A stretch of 39,508 bases of DNA from the IMG/VR virus record IMGVR_UViG_3300017648_000003, positions 1-39,508 of that record; one strand, written 5' to 3'. The notes below the pieces were generated by a model that saw only the letters and a list, made by a program, of their open reading frames with translations, made no database searches and was not told the origin of the DNA. Below are positions 1,039 to 39,508 of this stretch, one piece after another. This DNA comes from a virus (taxonomy: Duplodnaviria; Caudoviricetes). Each line of letters opens with the position of its first letter. Position 1 is the stretch's first letter. A program made the translations under genes and the position numbers.

Positions 1039-1055
1039 TGATTAGTTTCCTAGGC

Positions 1056-1092
1056 GCCGGTCGCGGGTCGCTCACTTTTGCAGGGTGGGACC
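1056..1092 (-). promoter_or_regulatory. rep leader stem-loop (loop CCUGCAAAA), putative antisense-RNA target
   Basis: GGTCCCAC-CCTGCAAAA-GTGAGCGACC lies about 20-55 nt upstream of the rep ATG; near-identical copy at 39237-39266. Confidence 0.65.
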
Positions 1093-2083: not shown

Positions 2084-2507
2084 CCCGGTCCCGGTCCGAG
2101 CCGACGCGGGGGTCCTTGACCACCCGGACGGCCTCGACCGACCGGCGGGGCATGTCGCGGAACGAGCCCAACTCCCAGAGCTGATAGGCCGCGTCGTCGG
2201 CGAGCTCGTCATCAGGGCCGGTGGCGATTCGCAACGCGATGTTGATCAGATTCACCCGGGCCGGCCGCCAGGGGGCGGGGCTCGTCTCCGCCGGGGCGGT
2301 GATTGCCTCGAGCGCCGCCGCCGCCAGAATCGCGGCTTGGCCGCCCAGACGGTCGACCGCCTTGACCAACCGGCGAAGGTCGCGGGCCGCCTGGCAGCCG
2401 CGGCAGCGGCCGGAATCGCGGTCGGCGGCCGGTTCCTCCCGGCAATCCCGACAGGCGGGGACGGCGTCCGTGTTGGCGAAGAGCGGGGTTTGTAGTAGAG
2501 TGGACAT
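2073..2507 (-). CDS. Zn-finger (CxxC...CxxC) hypothetical protein
   Basis: CRDC/CRGC pairs; AAAGGAAAG RBS before ATG 2507. Confidence 0.7.
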   Translation of the reverse strand: MSTLLQTPLFANTDAVPACRDCREEPAADRDSGRCRGCQAARDLRRLVKAVDRLGGQAAILAAAALEAITAPAETSPAPWRPARVNLINIALRIATGPDDELADDAAYQLWELGSFRDMPRRSVEAVRVVKDPRVGSDRDRDDD

Positions 2508-2582
2508 TGTCTTTCCTTTCGCGTGAGGTGAGAGCGAGAGCACTCCAGGGCCTCGGACGGTGGCTGCCGTCCGGGGCCTTTT
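2508..2582 (+). ncRNA. Putative cis-antisense RNA covering the RBS of the 2073..2507 gene
   Basis: TTGGCG(2473)-17 bp-TAGAGT(2496) promoter; 12-bp hairpin 2549-2578 followed by TTTT. Confidence 0.55.
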
Positions 2583-2597
2583 CCATTTCCGGGCCGG

Positions 2598-3351: not shown

Positions 3352-3463
3352 CCGCCACGCCGATTCAATGAACGGATGGCCATTTCGAACTTGAAGTCGC
3401 TGGTAGAATCGCGCATAATCCGTGCGCGTTTTGACAGGTTCTGCGGCTCCGAGGTCGAAATTT

Positions 3464-4093
3464 ATGTTCCAGACTGCCCTGTTCCCGGAAGTGGAAATCC
3501 CCGAAGAGGAGTTGAATCGGCGGCTTTCGCCCTACTACCCCAAGCTTTGGGATATTGTCAATCATCCCTTTGAGGATTTAAAACGGCGGCGGGCATCCGA
3601 CGCGGGTTTCAGGGTGCTGGACGAAGGCGAGTCCGCTCAATGGTTGCGACCCCAGATTATCGAACGCGCGAGGCACACCTTTCGCGACGATGATTCGGTG
3701 AGCGTTATCAAGAGGCGCAATCAGTATTACCTGGCCTTTGGCGACGACTTCTTGGTCGTTCCCAAAAAGCTGAGGCGCGAGCACTTAAGGAATCGTCTTA
3801 CCTTCAGCAGCTACAACACAAACCAGAACTCCAAGTTTTGGTTGCAGCAAGAAATCGAGGGCTTGCCTGATCTCCCCCGGTTGATCATTGGCTATCTGTT
3901 CATCCGGGAGATGACGGAAATTCAAACCTGGGTCGCCTACCCGCGTGGGAAGTCCGACGGCCTGTATATTCTGGTGCCGGATCAGGGAGGAGTCATCGGG
4001 CTTGCCGCGTCCGAAGTGGACGACGATCGGTTCGATGAAGACCTGGGGTTCCAGGTCAAGCCAAAGAGGAAGGCGTTGCCGGAAACGGGTTGA
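3464..4093 (+). CDS. Putative toxin of a RosmerTA-like pair
   Basis: KKL...FSSYNTNQNSKFWLQQEIEG...LIIGY pattern that I associate with genes upstream of XRE-M78 fusions; lower GC; 3 nt from the next gene. Confidence 0.55.
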   Translation: MFQTALFPEVEIPEEELNRRLSPYYPKLWDIVNHPFEDLKRRRASDAGFRVLDEGESAQWLRPQIIERARHTFRDDDSVSVIKRRNQYYLAFGDDFLVVPKKLRREHLRNRLTFSSYNTNQNSKFWLQQEIEGLPDLPRLIIGYLFIREMTEIQTWVAYPRGKSDGLYILVPDQGGVIGLAASEVDDDRFDEDLGFQVKPKRKALPETG

Positions 4094-4096
4094 GAC

Positions 4097-5146
4097 ATGA
4101 GGAAATTCAATTCCGATATGCTGGTGTTGGCGAGAGATCGCTTGGGGCTTTCGCAGTCCGCTCTCGCGAAGATGACCGGGATTGGACAGGCCAGGATCTC
4201 CCGATACGAGTCAGGAATGCTGGCTCCGCCGGGCGAGCATCTGGAGAAGTTCGCGCGGGCGCTTGACCGCCCGCTCTCCTTTTTTTTTCTGGGCGAGCGA
4301 GCCTACAACGCGAGCGCCACTTATCACCGAACGCGCAGGAGCCTCACGGTTGGAGAGGAACGCCAGATCCAGGCTCAAGTGAATGAGATGCGGATTCACG
4401 CATCGGTTCTACTTAATGAGGCCGAGATCGAGAGCCGCTACAGCTTTTACCGGCTGCCGCTGGATGACGGTGGGCCGGAGAAGGCGGCTCAGATCCTCAG
4501 GCGACTCTGGCAACTGCCGACCGGTCCGATCCGATCCGTGGTGGGCTCCATTGAACGGGCCGGCGGCCTGGTGTTTCGGTGCCCGTTCGACACCGACAAA
4601 ATCGACGGCGTTAGTCAATGGCCGCTGGATTCGGACCACGTTCCCCCGGTCCTGTTCGTCAGGGACGATGTTCCGGGCGATCGCCAGCGGTTCACGCTTG
4701 CCCATGAGATTGCCCACGTGGTTCTACATCATCTTCCGACCGACGATCCGGAGGGCGAGGCGGATCGGTTCGCCAGCGAGTTCCTCATGCCCGCCGAAGA
4801 AATCGAAACAGAGCTTTCGGGTCTTACGCTCAGAAAGGCGGCCGCCCTCAAGTGCTACTGGAAGGTGTCGATGGCCGCCATCATCCGGCGGGCGTTCGAC
4901 CTCGGGAAGATAACCGAGCGGCAGTATCGATACTTCAACGCCGAGCTTTCCCGCTTGGGGTATCGGAAGTGTGAACCGGCCCCAATACCGCCCGAAGAAC
5001 CTCGGATGCTGCAAGAGATCCTCAGGGTCCATCGCGTGTCGCACGGTCGAAGCACCGATGAGCTGAGCGAGCTGATGGGTTTGTACGCGGACCAGTTCAC
5101 GGGGATTTACGGCCATGACGGGCCGAGGCTTCGAATCGCCGGCTGA
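4097..5146 (+). CDS. XRE HTH plus ImmA/IrrE (M78) metallopeptidase fusion
   Basis: N-terminal HTH (LSQSALAKMTGIGQARISRYESG); RQRFTLAHEIAH and EADRFASEFLMP motifs. Confidence 0.92.
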   Translation: MRKFNSDMLVLARDRLGLSQSALAKMTGIGQARISRYESGMLAPPGEHLEKFARALDRPLSFFFLGERAYNASATYHRTRRSLTVGEERQIQAQVNEMRIHASVLLNEAEIESRYSFYRLPLDDGGPEKAAQILRRLWQLPTGPIRSVVGSIERAGGLVFRCPFDTDKIDGVSQWPLDSDHVPPVLFVRDDVPGDRQRFTLAHEIAHVVLHHLPTDDPEGEADRFASEFLMPAEEIETELSGLTLRKAAALKCYWKVSMAAIIRRAFDLGKITERQYRYFNAELSRLGYRKCEPAPIPPEEPRMLQEILRVHRVSHGRSTDELSELMGLYADQFTGIYGHDGPRLRIAG

Positions 5147-5166
5147 AGCGGAGAGGCGGTGCAAAG

Positions 5167-5445
5167 GTGAGTGAAAACCCGGGAGAGGCGTTCGAGCGGC
5201 ACATGCGGGAGCCCGATCCGGTCCCGAAACCGGGCACGGAGGAGCATTTCGAGTCGTTCCGGGAGTTCTTGGAGGAGTTGTTCGGCGTCGACGCCCACCT
5301 GGTCGAACTGGTCCCCGGCGAGCCCGAACCCGGCGAACCGGAGGGGTTTGTCCGGATGAAGATGCGGGGGCCTCAGGAGATGATCGAGCGGGTCCACGAG
5401 GAAATCATTCGGCGGAGCGAGGAACAGGAAGGCGGTGGGGAATGA
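5167..5445 (+). CDS. Acidic hypothetical protein
   Basis: GAGG RBS, Glu-rich, ATGA overlap with the next gene. Confidence 0.65.
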   Translation: MSENPGEAFERHMREPDPVPKPGTEEHFESFREFLEELFGVDAHLVELVPGEPEPGEPEGFVRMKMRGPQEMIERVHEEIIRRSEEQEGGGE

Positions 5446-6219: not shown

Positions 6220-6422
6220 AACAGGCCGCCCAGCAGGCGGGCGGCGCGGACGACGAGCCGCTCCGGGAACCGGGGGAGCGGGATCGAGGCGACGTGCTCG
6301 CCGTCGAGCCGGAGCCGGCCGAGGGCCTTGCAGCGGGCCTCGGCGTCGGCCCAGTCGCGGGCGTGGATCTCCAGACCCCACCGGGCTCCGTCCCAATCGT
6401 AGTGGCAAAGGTACCGTTTCAT
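6204..6422 (-). CDS. Small phage protein (MKRYLCHYDWDGARWGLEIHA...)
   Basis: Protein-like composition, AGAA/GGA purine run upstream, head-to-head with the YegP gene. Confidence 0.65.
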   Translation of the reverse strand: MKRYLCHYDWDGARWGLEIHARDWADAEARCKALGRLRLDGEHVASIPLPRFPERLVVRAARLLGGLFQRRR

Positions 6423-6452
6423 GGGATTTTCTTGGGGAGGCATGGGATTCTG

Positions 6453-6626
6453 ATGTGTTTTGCGATCTACAAGGACGCCAAGGGCGAATTCCGCTGGCGG
6501 CTCTGGGCCGCCAACTCGAAAATCATCGCCACATCCGGTGAAGGGTATCACAACAAGTCCGACTGTGAGCACGCGATCCAGCTCATCAAGGACGGCGCGG
6601 CGAAAGCTGCGGTTATCGAGGTTTGA
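6453..6626 (+). CDS. YegP/DUF1508 family protein
   Basis: FAIYKDAKGEFRWRLWAANSKIIATSGEGY signature; GGAGG RBS. Confidence 0.9.
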   Translation: MCFAIYKDAKGEFRWRLWAANSKIIATSGEGYHNKSDCEHAIQLIKDGAAKAAVIEV

Positions 6627-6746
6627 CCCGGGGCGGCCCGATCGCGGGCGCTGAATATTCCCGGGGGCGGCGATGTATATTCCGGTCGCGGGGCATAATT
6701 GGGCGTGATCGCTTGACGCCCAGCCACCCGACCGGAGACCGCGCCG

Positions 6747-7025
6747 ATGTATTTCAGCAGCGCCGAGGCCAAAGAGGAGTTGGACCGAATCGTCGTCGAG
6801 GCCCTGGGGCCGCTCGCCAGCGAAGCCGCGCCCGAACGGGTCGAGCTGGCCGGCGAGGCGCTGGCGGCCGGACTCCGGGCGTTCCACCGCCGGCTCCACG
6901 CCCCGGACCCGCCCCCGAAGCAATGCCCCGGCCCGGAAGCCAGTCCGGACACCGCCGCCGCGGCCCCGGATTCCGACGGCTGGTCGAACAAGCGCGGCCA
7001 GGCCCCGGAGCCGGCCAGGCGCTAG
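6747..7025 (+). CDS. Hypothetical protein
   Basis: GGAG RBS, helical N-terminus. Confidence 0.55.
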   Translation: MYFSSAEAKEELDRIVVEALGPLASEAAPERVELAGEALAAGLRAFHRRLHAPDPPPKQCPGPEASPDTAAAAPDSDGWSNKRGQAPEPARR

Positions 7026-7086
7026 CCCCGTCCGGTCCCCGCCGTCCGGTCTGGTCCCGGCGCCCCGGTTCCGCTAAGATCCGCCG

Positions 7087-7224
7087 TCCGCCCGCTTCGG
7101 GCGGCGACCGGCCCGGGCGTTTTTTGCTGGCGCCCCGGCCGCAACGGAGTCGCCCGTTCGGCTGATCCGAGCCGTTCGGCGTCAATCCGCCCGGGTGGTT
7201 CGGGGACGGCCGCCCGGGCGTTTT
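7087..7224 (+). ncRNA. Putative multi-hairpin sRNA A
   Basis: TAAGAT -10 at 7075 (weak -35); hairpins ccgcccg/cgggcgg and gggcgtt-TTTTGCT-ggcgccc; terminal hairpin 7188-7220 plus TTTT. Confidence 0.45.
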
Positions 7225-7242
7225 CGCGCGCCCTCGGCGCGC

Positions 7243-7329
7243 AAAAAAAGCCGCCGCCGGCCCCCCAGGTGAGAAGGGGCCGACGGCGGCGAAACGGCCG
7301 GGGTGGGCGCTAGCAGCAGCCCGGCCAGT
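7243..7329 (-). ncRNA. Putative sRNA 1 with its own promoter and intrinsic terminator
   Basis: TTGACC(7364-7359)-17-CAAAAT(7341-7336); two hairpins; T7 tail. Confidence 0.65.
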
Positions 7330-7451
7330 TATCCCATTTTGCCCGCGCGTCGCATCTTGGTCAAATGCAACCGGGCATGAAATTCCGCCGCCGATCCCCG
7401 GGTTCCGGAGGCGGGCGGCGGTCGATGTGTCTGGAGGGGCGGGCCCGCGCG

Positions 7452-7516
7452 AAAAAAGAGCCGCCGGCCGCCTCCGGGGTTGCCAGAAACGGCCGACGGC
7501 GGGAGCCCGTGAAGGC
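7452..7516 (-). ncRNA. Putative sRNA 2 with its own promoter and intrinsic terminator
   Basis: TTGACC(7551-7546)-17-GACAAT(7528-7523); long hairpin, loop CAACC; T6 tail. Confidence 0.65.
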
Positions 7517-7576
7517 GGGGGCATTGTCGCCCCCGGGTCCGCGGCGGTCAAGCCGGGAGGGCGGGCTCGGCGCGCG

Positions 7577-7657
7577 AAAAAAAACCGCCCGCCCCGGGCA
7601 TCGCTGACGGGACGGGCGGCCACGATCGGAGCCGCCCCGTCGCCGGGGCGCCCGCGC
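7577..7657 (-). ncRNA. Putative sRNA 3 with its own promoter and intrinsic terminator
   Basis: TTGACT(7692-7687)-17-CACAAT(7669-7664); GCGA-tetraloop hairpin plus terminator hairpin; T8 tail. Confidence 0.65.
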
Positions 7658-7706
7658 GGGGGCATTGTGGACGGGCGGCCGGCCGGAGTCAAGCGGGGGA
7701 GAGCCG

Positions 7707-7832
7707 ATGGACTGGGGCCTGGTGGTCGGGATTCTGGTCCACCTAGCCGGCTGGAGCTGGTACGTCCGCCGCTGTCTCAGGGCGGACCGGGCCGCGCTGG
7801 AGCGGCGGGCCGGGAACGGAGGCGCGGGTTAG
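7707..7832 (+). CDS. 41-aa single-TM peptide (MDWGLVVGILVHLAGWSWYVRRCLR...)
   Basis: GGGGAG RBS, hydrophobic helix plus basic tail; stop overlaps the convergent stop at 7829-7831; below the ORF-track size cutoff. Confidence 0.55.
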   Translation: MDWGLVVGILVHLAGWSWYVRRCLRADRAALERRAGNGGAG

Positions 7833-8992
7833 CCCTCGACCTGGAAGATGTAGTTGACGACCGGGGCCGGTTCCCCGCCCCCGCCCGGCGGGTCCGCCCG
7901 CTCGAGACAGCCCGCGGCGCACGGGTCGGGCCGCTCGCGTCCGAGCATGTCGACGGTCAGGCCGTCCGGTCGCGGGCCGAAGGCCAGGACGGGGCTGTTT
8001 TCTTGCGGCTCGTACATCGGACGCAAAGGCAGGTCGGCGAAGCCGGCCGCGCCGCGCGTCAGCGCGGGGTACAGGTCGGTCCGCGAGTTCACCCCCGCGT
8101 CCACGTTGGACCGGGGGGTCCCGTCGTAAAAGATATTGTAATCTTCATCTACCGACCCGTTCGCGCTCGCCGAAACGCCCGTCTGACACGCCACAAATAA
8201 ACACATGCGAACGGTTATGATTTTGGGCGACGACGTCCAGTTGTACGCCCGGACGGCCGAGCCTCTCGCGCCGGAGAAGGTGCAGCAAGTCACCTCCACG
8301 CCCGTCGGCCCGCCCGCGTCGGATGAACCGATGCGCTCGACGATGACCGCGCCGAAGGCGGACGACGCCGCGCCGCCAAGGAAGAGGCAACTGCGAATGG
8401 TCACGTTGATCGCGTAGTCCGTCGGGGCGTTGGAGCGGAGCACGCGCACGCCGTCTCCCGACGAGGCGTCGATGATGCAGCGCTCAATCGTCACGTCGGT
8501 CGTGTTGCCCGCGAGCGTGACGCCGTATTTGACCGGGTACGAGTTGAGAACGCAGTCGCGGATGTTGATCCGAGTCGAGTCGCCGATGTACACCGCCGAC
8601 CCCGCGCCGCTTGATCCGCCGACGAGCGACAACTTCTGGATCGTGATGTCGGATTTCGTGTTCATCGCGATCGCGGACGCGGCGATCGGCGTGTTGTCGG
8701 CCGACCACGCCCGGATTTCCGGCAGTCCGATCCCGCCCACGCCTCCCGCCGCGGCGAACAGCGAGCCGTCGTCGTCGCCGAGAATCGTCAGCGGCGCGGA
8801 CTCGGACGGCGAAACGGCCGTTGAGATGGCCTCCCGGAATAAGTCGCCGCCCCGGAGGATCACCCGGTTCGGCTCGGCGGCCGACGCCCCGCCGCCGGAG
8901 CCGATCGCCTTGTTGACGGTCGCCCACGGGTTGGTCGCCGAGCCGTCGCCCGTGGCGTCGGAGCCGCCGGCGGCCACGAAATAATCAGCCAT
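7829..8992 (-). CDS. Right-handed beta-helix (pectin-lyase-like) tailspike/depolymerase candidate
   Basis: YFVAAGGSDATGDGSATNPWATVNKAI N-terminus; repeated xTIxxCxx rungs; last gene of the tail operon. Confidence 0.75.
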   Translation of the reverse strand: MADYFVAAGGSDATGDGSATNPWATVNKAIGSGGGASAAEPNRVILRGGDLFREAISTAVSPSESAPLTILGDDDGSLFAAAGGVGGIGLPEIRAWSADNTPIAASAIAMNTKSDITIQKLSLVGGSSGAGSAVYIGDSTRINIRDCVLNSYPVKYGVTLAGNTTDVTIERCIIDASSGDGVRVLRSNAPTDYAINVTIRSCLFLGGAASSAFGAVIVERIGSSDAGGPTGVEVTCCTFSGARGSAVRAYNWTSSPKIITVRMCLFVACQTGVSASANGSVDEDYNIFYDGTPRSNVDAGVNSRTDLYPALTRGAAGFADLPLRPMYEPQENSPVLAFGPRPDGLTVDMLGRERPDPCAAGCLERADPPGGGGEPAPVVNYIFQVEG

Positions 8993-12699: not shown

Positions 12700-14238
12700 T
12701 CAACCCAACACGGCGAGTTTGGGCTTTTTGAGTTCGTCAGCGATTTCCCCGGTGTTTTCGGCGGTCTTCTCTTGGGCGGCGAGCTGCTTTTTCGCGGTGT
12801 CCTGTTCGCCGAAAATCCCGCCCCGGAGCTTGGCGGCGAAGTCGGCGGCGCCGAGGATCTGGTGTTTGAACTCCCCGCCGCCGGCCGCCCCGGCGGCTCC
12901 GGCCAGGTCCGCCCCGGGCTCGACGGCGGCCTGGTTGCGGGCGTCGAATATCCGCTGCGCGCGGTCGGCCTCGCGGGCGGCCATCCGTTCGCCGGCGGCG
13001 TCGATCTCGTCTTGAAGCGAGATCAGGTCGCCCCGGAGCAGCTCGGGAAGTTGCTCCGTGGTCGCCTCGAAACCGGCCAGGATGGGCGTCCATTCGAACT
13101 GGAATCCGCCGGCCGGGTTCTGGATCCATTCCCAGACGGCCGCGAACAGGTTGCCGAGGTTGGTTCCAAGATTCTGGAAGGCCGTCCAGGCGCCGACGGC
13201 CGCGTCCCGCATCAGGTTGACGAAGTTCCGGCCGAACCACTCCGCCAGCGTGAGCAGGTTGGGGAAGGCGACGGACAAGGGCGCGTAGATATAGTTTTGG
13301 AACGCCTCTTGAATCGTCAGGCTGTAGATCGTCCAAACGTCGGCCAGGTTGCGCCAGACGACGCCGATGGTCTCGACGCCGGCGACGATGGCGGCGGTGA
13401 AGCTTTCGAAGTACCCCTTCAGCGCCTCCCATCCCCCGGAGAGCGAGCCGACCAGCTCGTTGCCGAGGTTCAGCAGCGCGTTCAGGGCCGGCTCCAGCGT
13501 CGTCCCGACCTCGACGGCCATGTTCGTCAAGGTCCCGGTGAACCGCCGCCAGGAGTTGGCGGAGCCGTCGGCCGTCCGCTCCAGGTCGCCCTGCTGATCG
13601 GTCGTCTTGGCCATGATCAGGCTCAACGTCGCCTGTTTCTTGGCGGCCTCGTCCAGCTCTTTCGACGAGTTGATCAGGCCGAGCCGGAGCGCCTCTTGTT
13701 CCACGGCCGCGGCGTTGATCATCACGTTGAACCGCTCCAGCGGGTCGAACTCGCCCCGGAGCGCGGCGTTCAGCGCGGTGAAGACCTCGGCGTCGGAGGC
13801 GTTCCCAAACGACGCCATGTCCATGCCGAGCTTGGCCAGCCGGTTGCCGATCTCGGCGGCCTCGCCGGCGGCCACCCCGGCGGCCTTGAAGCTGGCCCCG
13901 AAGCTGGACGCGGCGTCCAGGTAGACCTGTTTGACCGTGCCGAATCGGTCGGCCATCGCGTCGGCCTGGTCGAGGATCACGCCGGCGGTGTCGCCGAAGA
14001 TCGCCTCCACCTTGCTGGTGGTTTCGGCCAGGTCGACGGCGCCGGAGATCCCGGTCTGGAAGAACCCGTAGATCGCCGACGCGGCCGACTGGATCAGCCC
14101 GGAGGCCAGGTTGCCGACCGTCGCGGCCACGGCCACGTCGAGCCGGGACAGCTCGCCGCGGACTCCCGCCAGCTCTTGCTTGACGCTGGCGTCCTTGGCC
14201 GTCAATTCAACAAATAGCGATGCGAGCTTAAAGGCCAC
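12700..14238 (-). CDS. Tape measure protein (512 aa)
   Basis: LASLFVELTA N-terminus, ALRGEFDPLERF and GDLERTADGSAN motifs, Ala-rich with spaced Trp; follows the chaperone genes. Confidence 0.9.
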   Translation of the reverse strand: MAFKLASLFVELTAKDASVKQELAGVRGELSRLDVAVAATVGNLASGLIQSAASAIYGFFQTGISGAVDLAETTSKVEAIFGDTAGVILDQADAMADRFGTVKQVYLDAASSFGASFKAAGVAAGEAAEIGNRLAKLGMDMASFGNASDAEVFTALNAALRGEFDPLERFNVMINAAAVEQEALRLGLINSSKELDEAAKKQATLSLIMAKTTDQQGDLERTADGSANSWRRFTGTLTNMAVEVGTTLEPALNALLNLGNELVGSLSGGWEALKGYFESFTAAIVAGVETIGVVWRNLADVWTIYSLTIQEAFQNYIYAPLSVAFPNLLTLAEWFGRNFVNLMRDAAVGAWTAFQNLGTNLGNLFAAVWEWIQNPAGGFQFEWTPILAGFEATTEQLPELLRGDLISLQDEIDAAGERMAAREADRAQRIFDARNQAAVEPGADLAGAAGAAGGGEFKHQILGAADFAAKLRGGIFGEQDTAKKQLAAQEKTAENTGEIADELKKPKLAVLG

Positions 14239-28929: not shown

Positions 28930-29123
28930 GAAAGCGCGCCGCGCCGGTCGGCGCGGCGCGCGCCCCGATCCCGCCCCCAAACCACCTCCCGAATTGCGTT
29001 GCCAGCCGGCGACGAACCGCCCGTCCGCCGCTCCCCGGAGCGTAGCCAGCCGGCGACGGCCCCGCCCGTCGCCAGTGGGCAACGCTTTTTCACGTCCGTC
29101 CGGTCAAAGAGAGGTTTCGAGCC

Positions 29124-29828
29124 GTGTCCGAATCCGCCGTGATCTACGTCCGCGTCTCGACCGACGAACAGGTCGAGCACGGGGTCAGCCTCCGCGCGCA
29201 AGAGGAGGTTTGCCGCCGGTTCGCCGAGGCCCAAGGGTGGCCGGTTATGGCGGTTATCCGAGAGGAGGGAATCTCCGGCGGCGTCCCGCTCGCGGCCCGG
29301 CCGGGGTTGGTCAAGGCGATCGAGGGCCTCGGCAAAGGCGACAGGATCGTCATCCTCAGACGGGACCGAATCTTCCGGGCGGATCCCTATGACAACGCCG
29401 TGATCGAACGGGCCGTCGCGGCGCGCGGGGCGCGGGTCGTCTCGACCCAGGGAGAGGGAACGGCCTCGGATTCCTCCGGGGACATCTTCACCCGTCGGAT
29501 TCTCGACGCCGTCGGCGAGAACGAGCGGCTTCGCCTCCGGGAGCGGACCCGCGAGGCCCTGAACTCGAAGCGCGCGGCGGGGGAGAGGATCGGTCAAATC
29601 CCCTACGGGTTCCGATTGGCGGCCGACGGCGTTCACTTGGAACCCGACCCGGCCGACGCCGGCCTGGCCGAAACCGTCCGCCGGCTCCGGGCCGAGGGGA
29701 GCTCCCTCCGGTCAATCGCCCGCGAGCTGGCCGCGCTGGGGTATCGGGGCAAAAACGGGGGCGGGACCGTCCCGCTCACGACGATCCGACGAATCCTTGG
29801 GAGTCTCAGCCCGTGTCCAAAGACCTGA
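29124..29828 (+). CDS. Serine recombinase (resolvase/invertase catalytic domain plus short recombinase DNA-binding domain)
   Basis: YVRVSTDEQ, RPGL, RRDRIFR, ER..RERT, PYGF, SLRSIAREL. Confidence 0.93.
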   Translation: MSESAVIYVRVSTDEQVEHGVSLRAQEEVCRRFAEAQGWPVMAVIREEGISGGVPLAARPGLVKAIEGLGKGDRIVILRRDRIFRADPYDNAVIERAVAARGARVVSTQGEGTASDSSGDIFTRRILDAVGENERLRLRERTREALNSKRAAGERIGQIPYGFRLAADGVHLEPDPADAGLAETVRRLRAEGSSLRSIARELAALGYRGKNGGGTVPLTTIRRILGSLSPCPKT

Positions 29829-33725: not shown

Positions 33726-33964
33726 GCCTTGCTCCTTTCGCGTCCCGTCTCACCCCCGATCTTATGCAGGTTGCCGCATGGGACGACGTACAGCCGCCCG
33801 TCCAGCTCGACGCCGTGATTGCGGGGCTTGCCCTTGCTCACGATCACGACCTTGACCAGCGCGTCTTGCAGGGGCGCGACCGAGGCGCGAGTCCCAATCC
33901 TCGCCAACATCACCCGGCTGTATCCGACGCGGACGATCTGGCCGGGGCGGGGATTGGCCATCAT
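33716..33964 (-). CDS. Small beta-rich (SH3-like) protein
   Basis: Coupled to both neighbours. Confidence 0.65.
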   Translation of the reverse strand: MMANPRPGQIVRVGYSRVMLARIGTRASVAPLQDALVKVVIVSKGKPRNHGVELDGRLYVVPCGNLHKIGGETGRERSKAWR

Positions 33965-35409
33965 CTCCCACCCCCGTCCTGAATCGCCCGGACCGACCCC
34001 GCCGGGTCGGCCGGATCGGCGTCCCCCACCGCGATCGACCCGTTGCCCATGTGCAGCGAAACCAGCCGCCCCCGGCTCGCCGACGGGTCGGCCTGGTCGC
34101 GGACGGTCCCGAAGTCCGCGACCCAGAAATGCAGCCAGGGCGGCCCGAACGGACTGGCCGCGGCGGTCGACCGGAAGCCGCGGGACTCGACCCGACCGTG
34201 GGCGTCGATCACCAGCTCGACCGCGCCGGTCCAGGGGTCGACGGGCAGCCGGGATCGGGGCCGGTCCCCCGCGGGCAGGTTCCAGCCGGTCGCGTCGATC
34301 ACGATCCCCGCCGGCAGCTCGACCGCGCCGGTGGACGCGGGGACCGGCCGACGGCGGATCGCGTACCGCTCGCCCCAGACCAGATCCCCGGGAACCGTGG
34401 CGCCCGTCGCCGGGTCGATCTTGCGCGGGCTCCGCTCGACCCCGACCCAGGTTTCAGGCTCCCATTCGTCGGCCTCGTCGGTCAGGCCGTCCAGATCGTT
34501 GTCGAGCCCATCGAACCCCTCATCCGTCAGCCCGTCGCGGTCGTCGTCGCGGCCGTTGACCAGGTAGAGGAATTCCAGCGGCCCGTCCCCCCGGTCGAGA
34601 GGGGAGGCCGCCCCCGGCTCCCCCCAATTGACGAACAGATCCGGGTTGCGGTCGCTCCCCCAGACGGTGGGGCCGACGACCGTGTACGTGGTCCCCCGGA
34701 ACTCCACTCGATCCCCCACCCGGACGTTCCACCACCAGTTCGTCGGGTTCGCGCGGATCCGGCCGTCCGGGGGAGCGCCGGGGCTCCGCATCCAAAACGA
34801 CTCCTCCAACACGAGCGGTCCCGCCGGCGGGTTGAACCCGGCCGGGTAGCGGTCGGTTTCGGGAATCCGGTTGGAGACGGCGGCCTTGCCCTCCAGGTAG
34901 CTCCCCGCGTCGGCGAGGGGGATCAGCCGCGAGTAAACCAGCGCCGCGTCCGGATCGATCCGGCCGTCGGCCAGCCGGCGGACCGGAAGGGCCGGATCGG
35001 GCTCCAGCCGGACCCCGGCCAGGGCCCCGCCGGCGGCCCGGTCGCGGGCGGCGACCAGGGCGACGTGCACGGCCTGCGCGCCGAGGGTGAGCCGGCGGTC
35101 GGCCAGCGAGTTGAAGACCGCCGGGATCGCCAGCGCGGCCACCAGGCCGACGATCAGGACGATCACCAGCAGCTCGACCAGCGTGAAGCCGGCCCGGCCC
35201 GACGCCGATGCCTTGGCCGAGCAGTCCGGGCAGACGTAGACCGTCCGGCCGTCCACCCGGGATTGCCGCCAGTCGGGCCAGACCTCCCGGGCCATCTCGG
35301 CGATCGACGACGCGGCCCAGCTCGTCTCCACGGCGAGCCCCGGAGACAGCTCGCCGCACCCGACGCATTGAATGTGGATTTCTCCACCGGCGCGCTTGGA
35401 TTCGCTCAC
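33961..35409 (-). CDS. Zn-ribbon plus type IV prepilin-like (N-methylation) protein with DxDxDG repeats
   Basis: CVGC...CPDC, then RAG|FTLVELLVIVLIVGLVAALAIP class III signal; NGRDDDRDGLTDEGFDGLDNDLDGLTDE; GTG 35409 overlaps the upstream stop. Confidence 0.85.
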   Translation of the reverse strand: MSESKRAGGEIHIQCVGCGELSPGLAVETSWAASSIAEMAREVWPDWRQSRVDGRTVYVCPDCSAKASASGRAGFTLVELLVIVLIVGLVAALAIPAVFNSLADRRLTLGAQAVHVALVAARDRAAGGALAGVRLEPDPALPVRRLADGRIDPDAALVYSRLIPLADAGSYLEGKAAVSNRIPETDRYPAGFNPPAGPLVLEESFWMRSPGAPPDGRIRANPTNWWWNVRVGDRVEFRGTTYTVVGPTVWGSDRNPDLFVNWGEPGAASPLDRGDGPLEFLYLVNGRDDDRDGLTDEGFDGLDNDLDGLTDEADEWEPETWVGVERSPRKIDPATGATVPGDLVWGERYAIRRRPVPASTGAVELPAGIVIDATGWNLPAGDRPRSRLPVDPWTGAVELVIDAHGRVESRGFRSTAAASPFGPPWLHFWVADFGTVRDQADPSASRGRLVSLHMGNGSIAVGDADPADPAGSVRAIQDGGGR

Positions 35410-35615
35410 AACCCACCCCCTTTCCAGGACGACAACCAAAGCTCCAGGTAGCCCGCCTCTTGCAAATAGGCGAGGTGGCCGTGGATCAGCAGGATGATCG
35501 CGAAGATCAGCAGCCCGGCCGCCCGCCGGGCCGGCAGCGGATCGCGCCGCCAGGGCCGCCAGCAGCCGAGCGGGACGAGGGCGGCGAGAGCCATGCAGAT
35601 ATGCAAAGTGATCAC
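35406..35615 (-). CDS. Small two-TM membrane protein (69 aa)
   Basis: GTGA-coupled; two hydrophobic segments. Confidence 0.6.
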   Translation of the reverse strand: MITLHICMALAALVPLGCWRPWRRDPLPARRAAGLLIFAIILLIHGHLAYLQEAGYLELWLSSWKGGGL

Positions 35616-37983: not shown

Positions 37984-38919
37984 TCAGGAAGAGCGGCGGA
38001 AGGCCACCTTGTCGGCCGCCGGGCGAAGGACCTCCACGTCCTCCTCGTCGTACCAGTCCTGCGTCCGCACGTTGGTGTGACGCAGCAGGGCCTTCAGCTC
38101 CAATTGGCTGAATCCCCAGGATTTTGCGTGGGTTCCGATCGTTTTTCGGAACGCGAGAATCGTCAGGTTGTCGACCCCGGCCCGCTTGCCCAGCTCCTTG
38201 ACCTGGTCGAGCGGTTTGGTGCCCGGGGCCCCCGAGGTCCACGGCGTCTTGAGCCGCTTGCCCGGGAACAGCCAGTTCGACCCACAGCGGGGGAGCCAGA
38301 GCCGGAGCACGTCCCGGAGCGGCGGGGCGATCGGCAGCTTCGCGGCCGACTTGACCGTCTTGGGGTGCCAGCATTCCTTGGGCTCGACCGTCAGGACCCG
38401 CCGCTCAAGATCCACGTTGTGGGCCTCCAAATGCAGGGCCTCCATCTTGCGGAGCCCGGCATACGCATAGACGTACACAAGCGCCTGCAACCGTCCCGCC
38501 TCCCAGGACCCCATCGCCGCCTCGGCGTCGGCCTGGTCGAGCACGCGGGCGATCTCATCCGAGCCCCGGTGGGTCGGCGCGGATCGGGCCGACTGTTTTT
38601 TGTCCGACCGGACCCACTGACCCGGGGGGCGGAACTCGAACGGGCTCGACCCGAGGAATCCCTTGCCGACCGCGAACTTCGCCGCCGTCGCCATGCACCG
38701 AAGGAGGCTGGCGACCCGAGCGGGGGAGCGGTCCTTGTGCCTCGCGACCCAGGCCGCCACCGCCTCCTCGGTCAGGGCCGCCGTGGTCCGAAAACCCGGC
38801 AGTTCGCCGAATTCCCGGAGAATCTGCCTTACCTGGCGATACGTCGCGGGCTCCCTCATCGGGGGCAGGTAAAGGCTCAAGTAACGGACGGTGAACGTGT
38901 CCCACGGAATTGGGCGCAT
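37984..38919 (-). CDS. int: Tyrosine integrase (311 aa, no evident arm-binding domain)
   Basis: GLRKMEA (R), PKT (K), LAFRKT (HxxR variant), LLRH, WYD (Y); adjacent to a tRNA-derived attP. Confidence 0.93.
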   Translation of the reverse strand: MRPIPWDTFTVRYLSLYLPPMREPATYRQVRQILREFGELPGFRTTAALTEEAVAAWVARHKDRSPARVASLLRCMATAAKFAVGKGFLGSSPFEFRPPGQWVRSDKKQSARSAPTHRGSDEIARVLDQADAEAAMGSWEAGRLQALVYVYAYAGLRKMEALHLEAHNVDLERRVLTVEPKECWHPKTVKSAAKLPIAPPLRDVLRLWLPRCGSNWLFPGKRLKTPWTSGAPGTKPLDQVKELGKRAGVDNLTILAFRKTIGTHAKSWGFSQLELKALLRHTNVRTQDWYDEEDVEVLRPAADKVAFRRSS

Positions 38920-39508
38920 GACTATTCCCCGCTTGCGGTTCCGTCGCTACAGTGGAGTCCGACCGGGGCAATGTAAGCCGCGAATGAGTCGCGGACTCTA
39001 TATCCGTGGGTTTTTCGCGCGGGGGATGCGCGGAGCATGCTTCGACTGATGGAATTTCGTGTAAAACAGGCCGGTCGGCGGGGGATGGGGGATTTAAGCG
39101 CGAGGACTTCGAATCCGAAGGTTGAAGGTTCGAATCCTTCCAGGCGCGCTGCGGGTTTCCGCCCGAGAATCCTTGCCGTGAATAACCGTTCACAGTAGGA
39201 TTCGACGGCGGGAGTTCGCATGCGGATTGGTTTCCGGCCGGTCGCGAGTCGCTTTTGCAGGGTGGGCTCGCGGCCGGTTCTTTTTGCGCGCCGGCCGCGC
39301 CGATCCGATCGAGGTCCGCCAGGGCCTCCAATCGTTCCCCCGCCCGGCTCGGCCGGGTCAGTCGTTTCAGCGCGGCCAGGGCCTCGGCGTTTAGCCGCTC
39401 CGTTTCCGAGTCGGTCTCCGGCTCCGCCTTCGCGCGGTGGAAATCCGCGTCGGTCTTCACCGTCCTCCGCCGGGAGCGGGCCGCGTCCGCCATCCCGCGA
39501 ACGTCGAC
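38555..39508 (-). CDS. Replication initiator, 3' part (reads through attP and overlaps int out of frame)
   Basis: In frame with the ORF from 1038 via the terminal repeat; first stop at 38555. Confidence 0.6.
   Translation of the reverse strand, partial: VDVRGMADAARSRRRTVKTDADFHRAKAEPETDSETERLNAEALAALKRLTRPSRAGERLEALADLDRIGAAGAQKEPAASPPCKSDSRPAGNQSACELPPSNPTVNGYSRQGFSGGNPQRAWKDSNLQPSDSKSSRLNPPSPADRPVLHEIPSVEACSAHPPREKPTDIESATHSRLTLPRSDSTVATEPQAGNSHAPNSVGHVHRPLLEPLPAPDEGARDVSPGKADSPGIRRTAGFSDHGGPDRGGGGGLGREAQGPLPRSGRQPPSVHGDGGEVRGRQGIPRVEPVRVPPPGSVGPVGQKTVGPIRADPPGLG
38922..39221 (-). CDS. Possible leader ORF spanning attP, ending 2 nt before the int ATG
   Basis: 99-codon ORF; no recognisable family. 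Confidence 0.3.
   Translation of the reverse strand: MRTPAVESYCERLFTARILGRKPAARLEGFEPSTFGFEVLALKSPIPRRPACFTRNSISRSMLRASPARKTHGYRVRDSFAAYIAPVGLHCSDGTASGE
39104..39148 (+). other. attP core: 3' half of tRNA-Arg(TCG)
   Basis: GGA-CTTCGAA-TCCGA anticodon arm, GAAGG-TTCGAAT-CCTTC T arm, CAGGCGC-G acceptor 3' strand; no D arm or 5' acceptor strand upstream. Confidence 0.9.
39208..39285 (+). ncRNA. Putative antisense sRNA (loop UUUUGCAGG)
   Basis: TTGCCG(39173)-17-TAGGAT(39196) promoter; hairpin 39238-39277 plus TTCTTTTT; matches the rep leader at 1056-1089. Confidence 0.7.
39386..39508. repeat. Terminal direct repeat, right copy
   Basis: Identical to 1-123. Confidence 0.95.

Follow-up and report, generated by a model that had tools for sequence, protein, structure and literature searches.

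Tandem promoter-hairpin-terminator units behind the late genes of a temperate siphophage: predicted small RNAs resembling an att-side family of antisense RNAs, and a plausible library against competing elements

An array of three units between convergent genes

The window, a stretch of 39,508 nucleotides analyzed here at its full length, represents the complete circular genome of a temperate soil siphophage with a terminal repeat of 123 nt and with terminase, portal, capsid, tail, and integrase genes. A related prophage occupies the same tRNA-Arg(TCG) gene that supplies the att core of the phage (Table 1) in the genome of a Planctomycetales bacterium, from which we inferred a Planctomycete host. 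Directly after the tail and late genes, and in the same direction as the last of them, follows an array of small units that faces a convergent block of accessory (moron) genes. A search with the last late gene, which encodes a beta-helix protein, returned one relative, where the gene stands in a different context and without units.

The array consists of three tandem minus-strand units, termed U1, U2, and U3, each of which combines a promoter, a hairpin, and a T-run, as the initial annotation of this DNA had proposed. Matches to the promoter pattern TTGAC(C/T)-17-(C/G)A(C/A)AAT start at 7692, 7551, and 7364. Between positions 6400 and 8000 these three matches compare with a shuffle mean of 0.1; across the whole window exactly the same three were found against 0.11 expected, and none of 100 shuffles reached three. 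A terminator-like hairpin with a T-run lies behind each promoter, and the T-runs are followed by the (C)GCGCG motif already described in the initial annotation (7571-7586, 7446-7460, and 7238-7251). Counted over the whole window, units with both promoter and terminator number five in the real sequence and 0-1 in each of 12 shuffled windows. The fold z-scores are -4.9 for U1, -5.1 for U2, and -2.3 for U3, and the array hairpins outrank all other terminators of the genome. The plus strand of U2 folded no better than shuffles (z -0.7), and the minus strand is therefore the structured one. The array itself is a real feature of this genome, whereas its RNAs are predicted from the sequence.

The stem common to the U1 and U2 hairpins and the promoter tail common to U2 and U3 were both found where they had been proposed, and the repeats of the array are 67-82% alike. 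These two paralogies, together with a decayed fourth hairpin (Ux), point to an origin of the units by tandem duplication and divergence. The earlier description of differing loops stands in part: folding corrected the U1 loop to seven nucleotides, and the U3 loop proved to be variable in a relative (see below). The apexes of U2 and U3 hold GCAA and GCGA, which may be ordinary stable caps. Ux, a convergent candidate unit (U0), and a 41-codon ORF are features of the locus beyond those in the initial annotation.

Table 1. Features of the array, its surroundings, and the related RNA units in the window
Feature	Position	Strand	Remarks
Replication-gene leader hairpin and RBS region	1040..1089	-	ATG at 1038, HTH_36; complementary to the att-side RNA
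Cis-antisense RNA unit over start codon (2507) and RBS of an early gene	2473..2586	+	Early gene on minus strand; second class of similar units
Candidate convergent unit U0	7052..7226 (approx.)	+	Weak -35, TAAGAT -10, hairpin with T-run at 7120
U1 predicted RNA, ~87 nt	7243..7329	-	5' hairpin, 17-bp hairpin with CUCACCU loop, T7
U1 promoter TTGACC-17-CAAAAT	7336..7364	-	Pattern match
Ux, degenerate fourth hairpin	7385..7421	-	Paralog of the U1/U2 stem; without T-run, without good promoter
U2 predicted RNA, ~65 nt	7452..7516	-	18-bp hairpin with many G-U pairs, 5-nt loop, T-run
U2 promoter TTGACC-17-GACAAT	7523..7551	-	Paralog of U3 promoter, 43 nt, 72% identical
U3 predicted RNA, ~80 nt	7577..7657	-	5' hairpin, then terminator hairpin and T8
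U3 promoter, sigma70-type TTGACT-17-CACAAT	7664..7692	-	Pattern match
ORF of 41 codons	7707..7832	+	Hydrophobic N-terminus, RBS; back to back with U3 promoter
Last late gene, beta-helix protein	7829..8992	-	Array follows it in the same direction
Integrase	37984-38919	-	att core lies between it and the att-side RNA
att core, 3' part of tRNA-Arg(TCG)	39105..39148	+	Between integrase and att-side RNA
att-side RNA gene TTGCCG-17-TAGGAT, hairpin, T-run	39173..39286	+	In-genome model for the units, outside the array; RNA start ~39208

No convincing gene overlaps the units, in agreement with the initial reading. The long ORFs across the array do not have the codon-position GC pattern of phage genes, and a 2-nt insertion at 7119 in the relative would frameshift the 312-codon ORF that crosses it. 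Plus-strand promoters scoring at least 8/12 were not found within the array. The start of the 41-codon ORF lies 15 nt past the U3 -35 box, and its codon-position GC (0.76/0.59/0.88) is gene-like; the homolog search for it was empty, and its Atlas leads all scored below 0.9. The U0 candidate comprises a long rod hairpin that ends in a T-run at 7221 and is part of a conserved block. The rod (7086-7226, plus strand) has internal loops at regular spacing, with a z-score of -3.2 for the whole, and gave three weak matches in 121 genomes. The sole RNA run, X7, which is available as contigs, has contigs at 5000-5416 and 6357-6771 and leaves the array uncovered; contigs drop short RNAs, and their lack over the array is therefore no evidence either way. 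Of the two covered stretches, the first runs over the end of the HTH-peptidase M78 gene and the ORF after it, the second over the DUF1508 gene; both may reflect DNA carry-over.

Comparison with databases assigned the array to no described family. Rfam gave no match at gathering level in the window and only sub-threshold matches over the array, so that the units match no Rfam family, and the C4 model (RF01695) had no match in 6900-7900 at E values up to 5. The best CRISPR-DR match over the array reached 16 bits against a cut-off of 35, and no Cas Pfam domains were detected among the 67 ORFs of the window; with repeats that differ as stated above, the array is not a CRISPR array, as the initial annotation had stated. 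BLAST of the array against 50,697 phage and 72,556 plasmid records returned nothing, and against 121 host-family genomes short GC-rich matches only. Among 12 of the latter that were inspected, most fall within coding frames that share the orientation of the unit, and one matches the U2 centre at 24 of 24 positions inside an ORF. Two IMG/VR matches to the exact promoter-tail pattern, both in low-GC coding DNA, were dismissed as chance, and two U1-like hairpins (in L197, and in L337 behind enolase) as host terminators.

Several other features of the phage genome were recorded. A 223-codon ORF without a family match precedes a gene with HTH_3 and Peptidase_M78 domains (3422-5146, plus strand; promoter of its own at 3391), likely an accessory or defence-type pair. 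Within 28996-29086 and 29124-29828, a serine recombinase of the resolvase/invertase type is encoded on the strand opposite to its neighbours, with a 31-nt direct repeat and a hairpin just upstream. The 39-nt direct repeat inside the replication gene at 564-630 is a possible origin iteron. The product of 33961-35439 (minus strand) carries a prepilin-type N-terminal methylation motif, which is typical of Planctomycete proteins.

The att-side RNA and its predicted replication-leader family

The RNA unit next to the att core had been put forward as a parallel to the array with a clear target, and this target was supported computationally. Its match to the leader hairpin of the replication gene in the same genome exceeded all 200 shuffles (0/200), and the cofold energy of -28.8 kcal/mol was the top value of about 2,240 genome windows. 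Predicted pairs of an RNA and a leader of its own element were identified in nine phages and integrated elements, each with its own sequence. Among 28 units tested, the own-leader match stood at 0/200 shuffles in the window, G003, G004, and G061:C521, and the first hairpin of the G104 element matches its own leader by inspection. A covariance model was built from 10 att-side hairpins, excluding U1-U3, and was searched in 121 host-family genomes. Of 18 model-found units, four have a significant own-leader match, namely those in G097 (26/27 positions), G100 (27/29), and G104:5492343 (18/18), all at 0/200, and in G061:C227 (20/23, 2/200). Two others have partial leader matches below significance (L290 and L283), three matched tandem tRNA-linked copies only, and nine gave no match. 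An att-side unit of the G006 prophage had its best match (3/200) inside an ORF and hence was not counted.

The pairs share a common layout. The RNA lies beside att wherever att is visible (in G003 no integrase was found), and the complementarity of about 18-30 nt is centred on the RNA loop and directed to a hairpin that shortly precedes a start codon. The matched leader hairpin ends about 27-40 nt before the ATG, closer in the window, and the distance from RNA to leader in integrated elements is 1.2-3.6 kb. In six of the nine cases the gene behind the leader is of replication type (primase, helicase, or initiator domains): HTH_36 in the window, AAA_25 in G004, G104e, and G061e, D5_N in G061:C227, and DnaB and DUF3987 in G104c. 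In the Pfam scan, which took in neither G003 nor G097, no replication-type domain was detected after the G100 leader. In a 10x10 cofold table that includes the partial G104 pair, each RNA bound best to its own leader (-7.5 to -28.8 kcal/mol), with cross-talk mainly among three RNAs that have a common UCUCA apex. The RNA/leader pairs are, for the most part, predicted to be element-specific. The target-leader loops are GCAA or GAGA in four of the first five pairs; their assignment as GNRA tetraloops was abandoned, since folding gives loops of 3-9 nt and later pairs have other loops. On four loci with att-side or related units Rfam detected nothing but tRNA, and the family was not found described in any database or literature searched.

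Three further loci were noted in the course of this survey. At least four elements with att-side RNAs reside in one genome (G104:C1, at 2900703, 2921904, 5492343, and 6078888); three of these RNAs have the UCUCA apex, and two of the three are predicted to cross-bind each other's leaders. Tandem tRNA genes in L294 (G114) and L300 (G115) are each followed by paralogous hairpins with different loops, which score with the antisense model and are probably plain terminators. In a distant phage of lower GC content (L212:7463-7520), a strong promoter-hairpin unit has the same 12-nt apex as the att-side RNA of the window.

The array units have the architecture of the att-side family, with their own sigma70 promoter, a length of 55-90 nt, and a terminator hairpin with T-run, and U1 shares its UCUCA apex with four att-side antisense RNAs. 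When the covariance model, trained without the array units, was run on 99 kb, its two best non-training matches were U1 (29 bits, E 6e-5) and then U2 (22 bits), and U3 scored lower at 19 bits; this model consists of 7 base pairs only and also retrieves tRNA terminators. An apex motif defined post hoc occurs in 15 of 33 units and in 4 of 37 background terminators, and is present in U1 and U2, not in U3. The sharing of apexes (7-8 nt) between U1-U3 and other units does not clearly exceed background (91, 15, and 24 of 500 shuffles). U1-U3 have neither a leader complement in their own element nor a position adjacent to att, the two other hallmarks of the family.

Target searches and orphan units in related phages

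Complementary sites for U1, U2, and U3 in their own genome were equaled by 72, 16, and 70 of 200 shuffles, respectively, and the best cofold energies of -8.7, -9.3, and -14.1 kcal/mol were reached at GC runs, compared with -28.8 for the control. None of the 10 known leaders was bound by U1-U3 (all weaker than -4.3). Nine base pairs spotted by eye between the U1 loop and the RNA at 2473 were discarded, as this pairing was missing from the top cofold matches. Exact scans of IMG/VR yielded 11, 71, and 13 matches, none of which was found on inspection to lie in a leader hairpin. Pattern scans of 121 or 391 host genomes gave 2, 5, 2, 15, 13, and 45 matches, close to the 4, 6, 0, 8, 16, and 28 of the reversed-pattern controls, and none of them convincing. 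All of these matches except 15 of the 45, which came without a locus, were inspected, with no leader hairpin among them. Complementary leaders of competing phages or elements, as proposed in the initial annotation, were not found in these searches. The scans were exact or nearly so, and the collections hold about 20 related records, mostly fragments; with so few records and mostly unique specificities, the negative outcome is of limited weight. The stems of the array are very stable, and the predicted binding of U1 to anything is close to nil (mean -0.1 kcal/mol).

Units without a partner in their own element occur outside the array as well. In G003 and in the G104 element, a paralog with an altered loop lies directly behind the cognate RNA, and no partner was found within the available sequence. 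Foreign-target searches with these two orphans were also empty, and a pair of an orphan and a foreign leader was not seen for any orphan. L018, whose tail protein is 58% identical and of which half the genome is available, has four unrelated promoter-hairpin units after the tail genes, two of them in tandem. G004 has a single unit at the syntenic place, with an 81-codon hydrophobic ORF back to back. A tandem array with strong promoters directly behind the tail genes was not seen in G001, G003, G005, the G006 prophage, and L027, five of the loci that extend beyond these genes, and L014 has an identical copy of the array that is not independent. A second class, represented in the window by the unit at 2473, covers the start of an early gene; such cis-antisense units were also found in G001, G003, G004, G005, the G006 prophage, and a G061 element, and clear cases account for 7 of the 32 units listed. 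L027:13733-13779 and L196 at about 12994-13040 have in common a 47-nt hairpin unit with two differences, both at the loop.

The closest comparison was provided by runs X9 and X10 of one other study, in which the relative is represented by single contigs at a depth below 5. The block 7070-7603 is 99% identical to the window, with 3 substitutions in 534 nt and one 2-nt insertion, whereas 16 substitutions and 9 indel rows fall within 106 nt of flank on that contig (block versus flank, p 7e-11). This low divergence suggests either a recent exchange of the block or strong constraint on its sequence. The loop of U3 differs at three positions (7604-7606), and all four changes in its stem (7588, 7611, 7612, and 7616) keep the pairing, the 7588/7616 pair being changed on both sides. 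The loops of U1 and U2 are unchanged. The variation anticipated at the syntenic locus was thus observed for the number and sequence of the units and for the U3 loop, but not for the U1 and U2 loops, which are identical in this one close relative. The three-unit block probably moves between phages.

Possible functions and relation to known systems

Since U1-U3 are built like the att-side RNA, yet have no partner in their own genome, we favor the explanation that they are orphan antisense RNAs of the att-side type directed against leaders of other phages or integrated elements, and would give it somewhat less than an even chance. According to the proposed mechanism, the antisense RNA would be made in the lysogen, its loop would meet the loop of a leader, and the duplex would then extend and either block translation or cause attenuation, so that an element with the matched leader could not begin replication. 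Additional copies with altered loops, inserted into an exchangeable slot behind the tail genes, would bring elements with other leaders under the same block. More tentatively, we propose that temperate Planctomycete phages and integrated elements govern replication leaders through a protein-free RNA lock-and-key system of many specificities, and that some carry an exchangeable, loop-diversified cassette that silences competitors, which would amount to a multi-specific library of RNA-only heteroimmunity without Cas. For the array as such, a library against competitors, as suggested in the initial annotation, is plausible: architecture, family, and variation can be seen in the sequences, whereas expression, pairing, and targets of the units are inferred, and no complementary target turned up anywhere searched.

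Other explanations start from the same observations. The units could be expressed decoys or short-seed regulators that mimic leader loops, titrate antisense RNAs made by resident elements, attach to a defence protein or an RNA-binding protein, or seed-pair with host mRNAs. The apexes of U2 and U3 resemble the purine-rich loops of target leaders more than the pyrimidine-rich antisense loops, the near lack of predicted U1 binding is in line with a decoy, and prophage anti-sRNAs offer precedents (see below). We consider this rather unlikely, however, as the two antisense RNAs of the phage itself were no standout partners in the genome-wide cofold scan, no evident protein partner adjoins the array, and the U1 apex is identical to that of antisense RNAs. 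An unlikely account, too, is that the units are cis-antisense leader modules and partly relics, in which U3 would control the leader of the 41-codon membrane-type ORF, in the manner of a type I toxin-antitoxin system or as moron control, and U1, U2, and Ux would be duplicates that lost their genes. Such a role agrees with the RBS and codon GC of this ORF, the likewise back-to-back ORF in G004, the common occurrence of units over early-gene starts, and the decayed appearance of Ux. In the clear cases, however, the RNA or its promoter includes the start codon, whereas the U3 RNA does not cover the RBS; U1, U2, and units A-C of L018 have no gene opposite. The consensus promoters and perfect stems that U1 and U2 keep, nearly invariant in the relative, also argue against relics, as do, against the module itself, the 41-codon ORF without a homolog and the array without a plus-strand promoter.

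The position of the array exactly between convergent transcription units would also suit a stack of terminators that insulates the late operon from the moron block, the promoters being incidental or silent. The strength of the hairpins as terminators and the sole RNA library without a contig on the array are consistent with this function. It was nevertheless judged improbable, given that one terminator would suffice and that three near-consensus promoters with an exact spacing of 17 bp precede the terminators by 60-90 nt, far above the chance expectation. The same promoter-hairpin geometry is repeated in L018 with unrelated sequence.

If orphan antisense RNAs do block other elements, the array would represent a programmable, protein-free form of interference between phages, in which the exchange of a loop of about 10-25 nt alters the specificity and a mobile cassette serves as its carrier; the immunity of the P1-C4 and P4-CI type would then extend from self-control to attack on rivals. 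Even without such blocking, the predicted pairs of element-specific antisense RNAs and replication leaders constitute a family in Planctomycete prophages and integrated elements. These nine natural pairs, mostly orthogonal by prediction, could become regulatory parts for a phylum that has few tools.

A literature search, mostly without subscription papers, returned no such RNAs in Planctomycete phages and no arrays of orphan antisense RNAs. The nearest described systems are phage-encoded regulatory RNAs. The C4 RNA of P1 and P7 blocks the antirepressor mRNA and sets an RNA-determined heteroimmunity (PMC12197685), and the c4 and c4-a1b1 motifs are recorded for Proteobacteria (PMC2864571). The likeness lies in a phage RNA (RF01695) whose loops pair in trans with a leader near the RBS and whose sequence differences set heteroimmunity. 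C4, however, acts on the antirepressor mRNA of the phage that encodes it, whereas the leaders matched by the att-side RNAs precede replication genes and U1-U3 are without an own target. C4 is folded as a cloverleaf, in contrast to the single terminator hairpin found here. U1-U3 fall outside C4, with no Rfam match and no target in their own genome, hence none in an antirepressor leader.

The CI RNA of satellite phage P4 is an antisense RNA that terminates the replication transcripts, shutting off the replication genes of the element in the lysogen by pairing with their leader; it derives by processing from the very transcript under its control, and its pairing partners seqA and seqC flank it on both sides (PMC4825925). 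The att-side RNA, in contrast, has its own promoter, lies 1.2-3.6 kb from the leader, and is accompanied by extra orphan copies. U1-U3 differ from P4 CI in that every unit carries a separate promoter and T-run, and complements flanking the units did not score. STnc6030 of prophage BTP1 is likewise an instance of RNA-only superinfection exclusion encoded among late genes, described as a 786-nt cis-antisense RNA that acts on its own phage type (PMC7067206), whereas the array units are 65-90 nt long and have no overlap and no self target. The prophage anti-sRNAs AgvB and AsxR, which pair with known host sRNAs (PMC12197685), supply the precedent for decoys mentioned above. They are, like the units, short and independently terminated phage RNAs and serve as the model for that rival explanation. 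Both are encoded near late genes. A small guide library acting between viruses is known from virus-borne mini-CRISPR arrays. In contrast to these, the array has no identical repeats with spacers and no Cas gene, and each of its units carries its own promoter and terminator.
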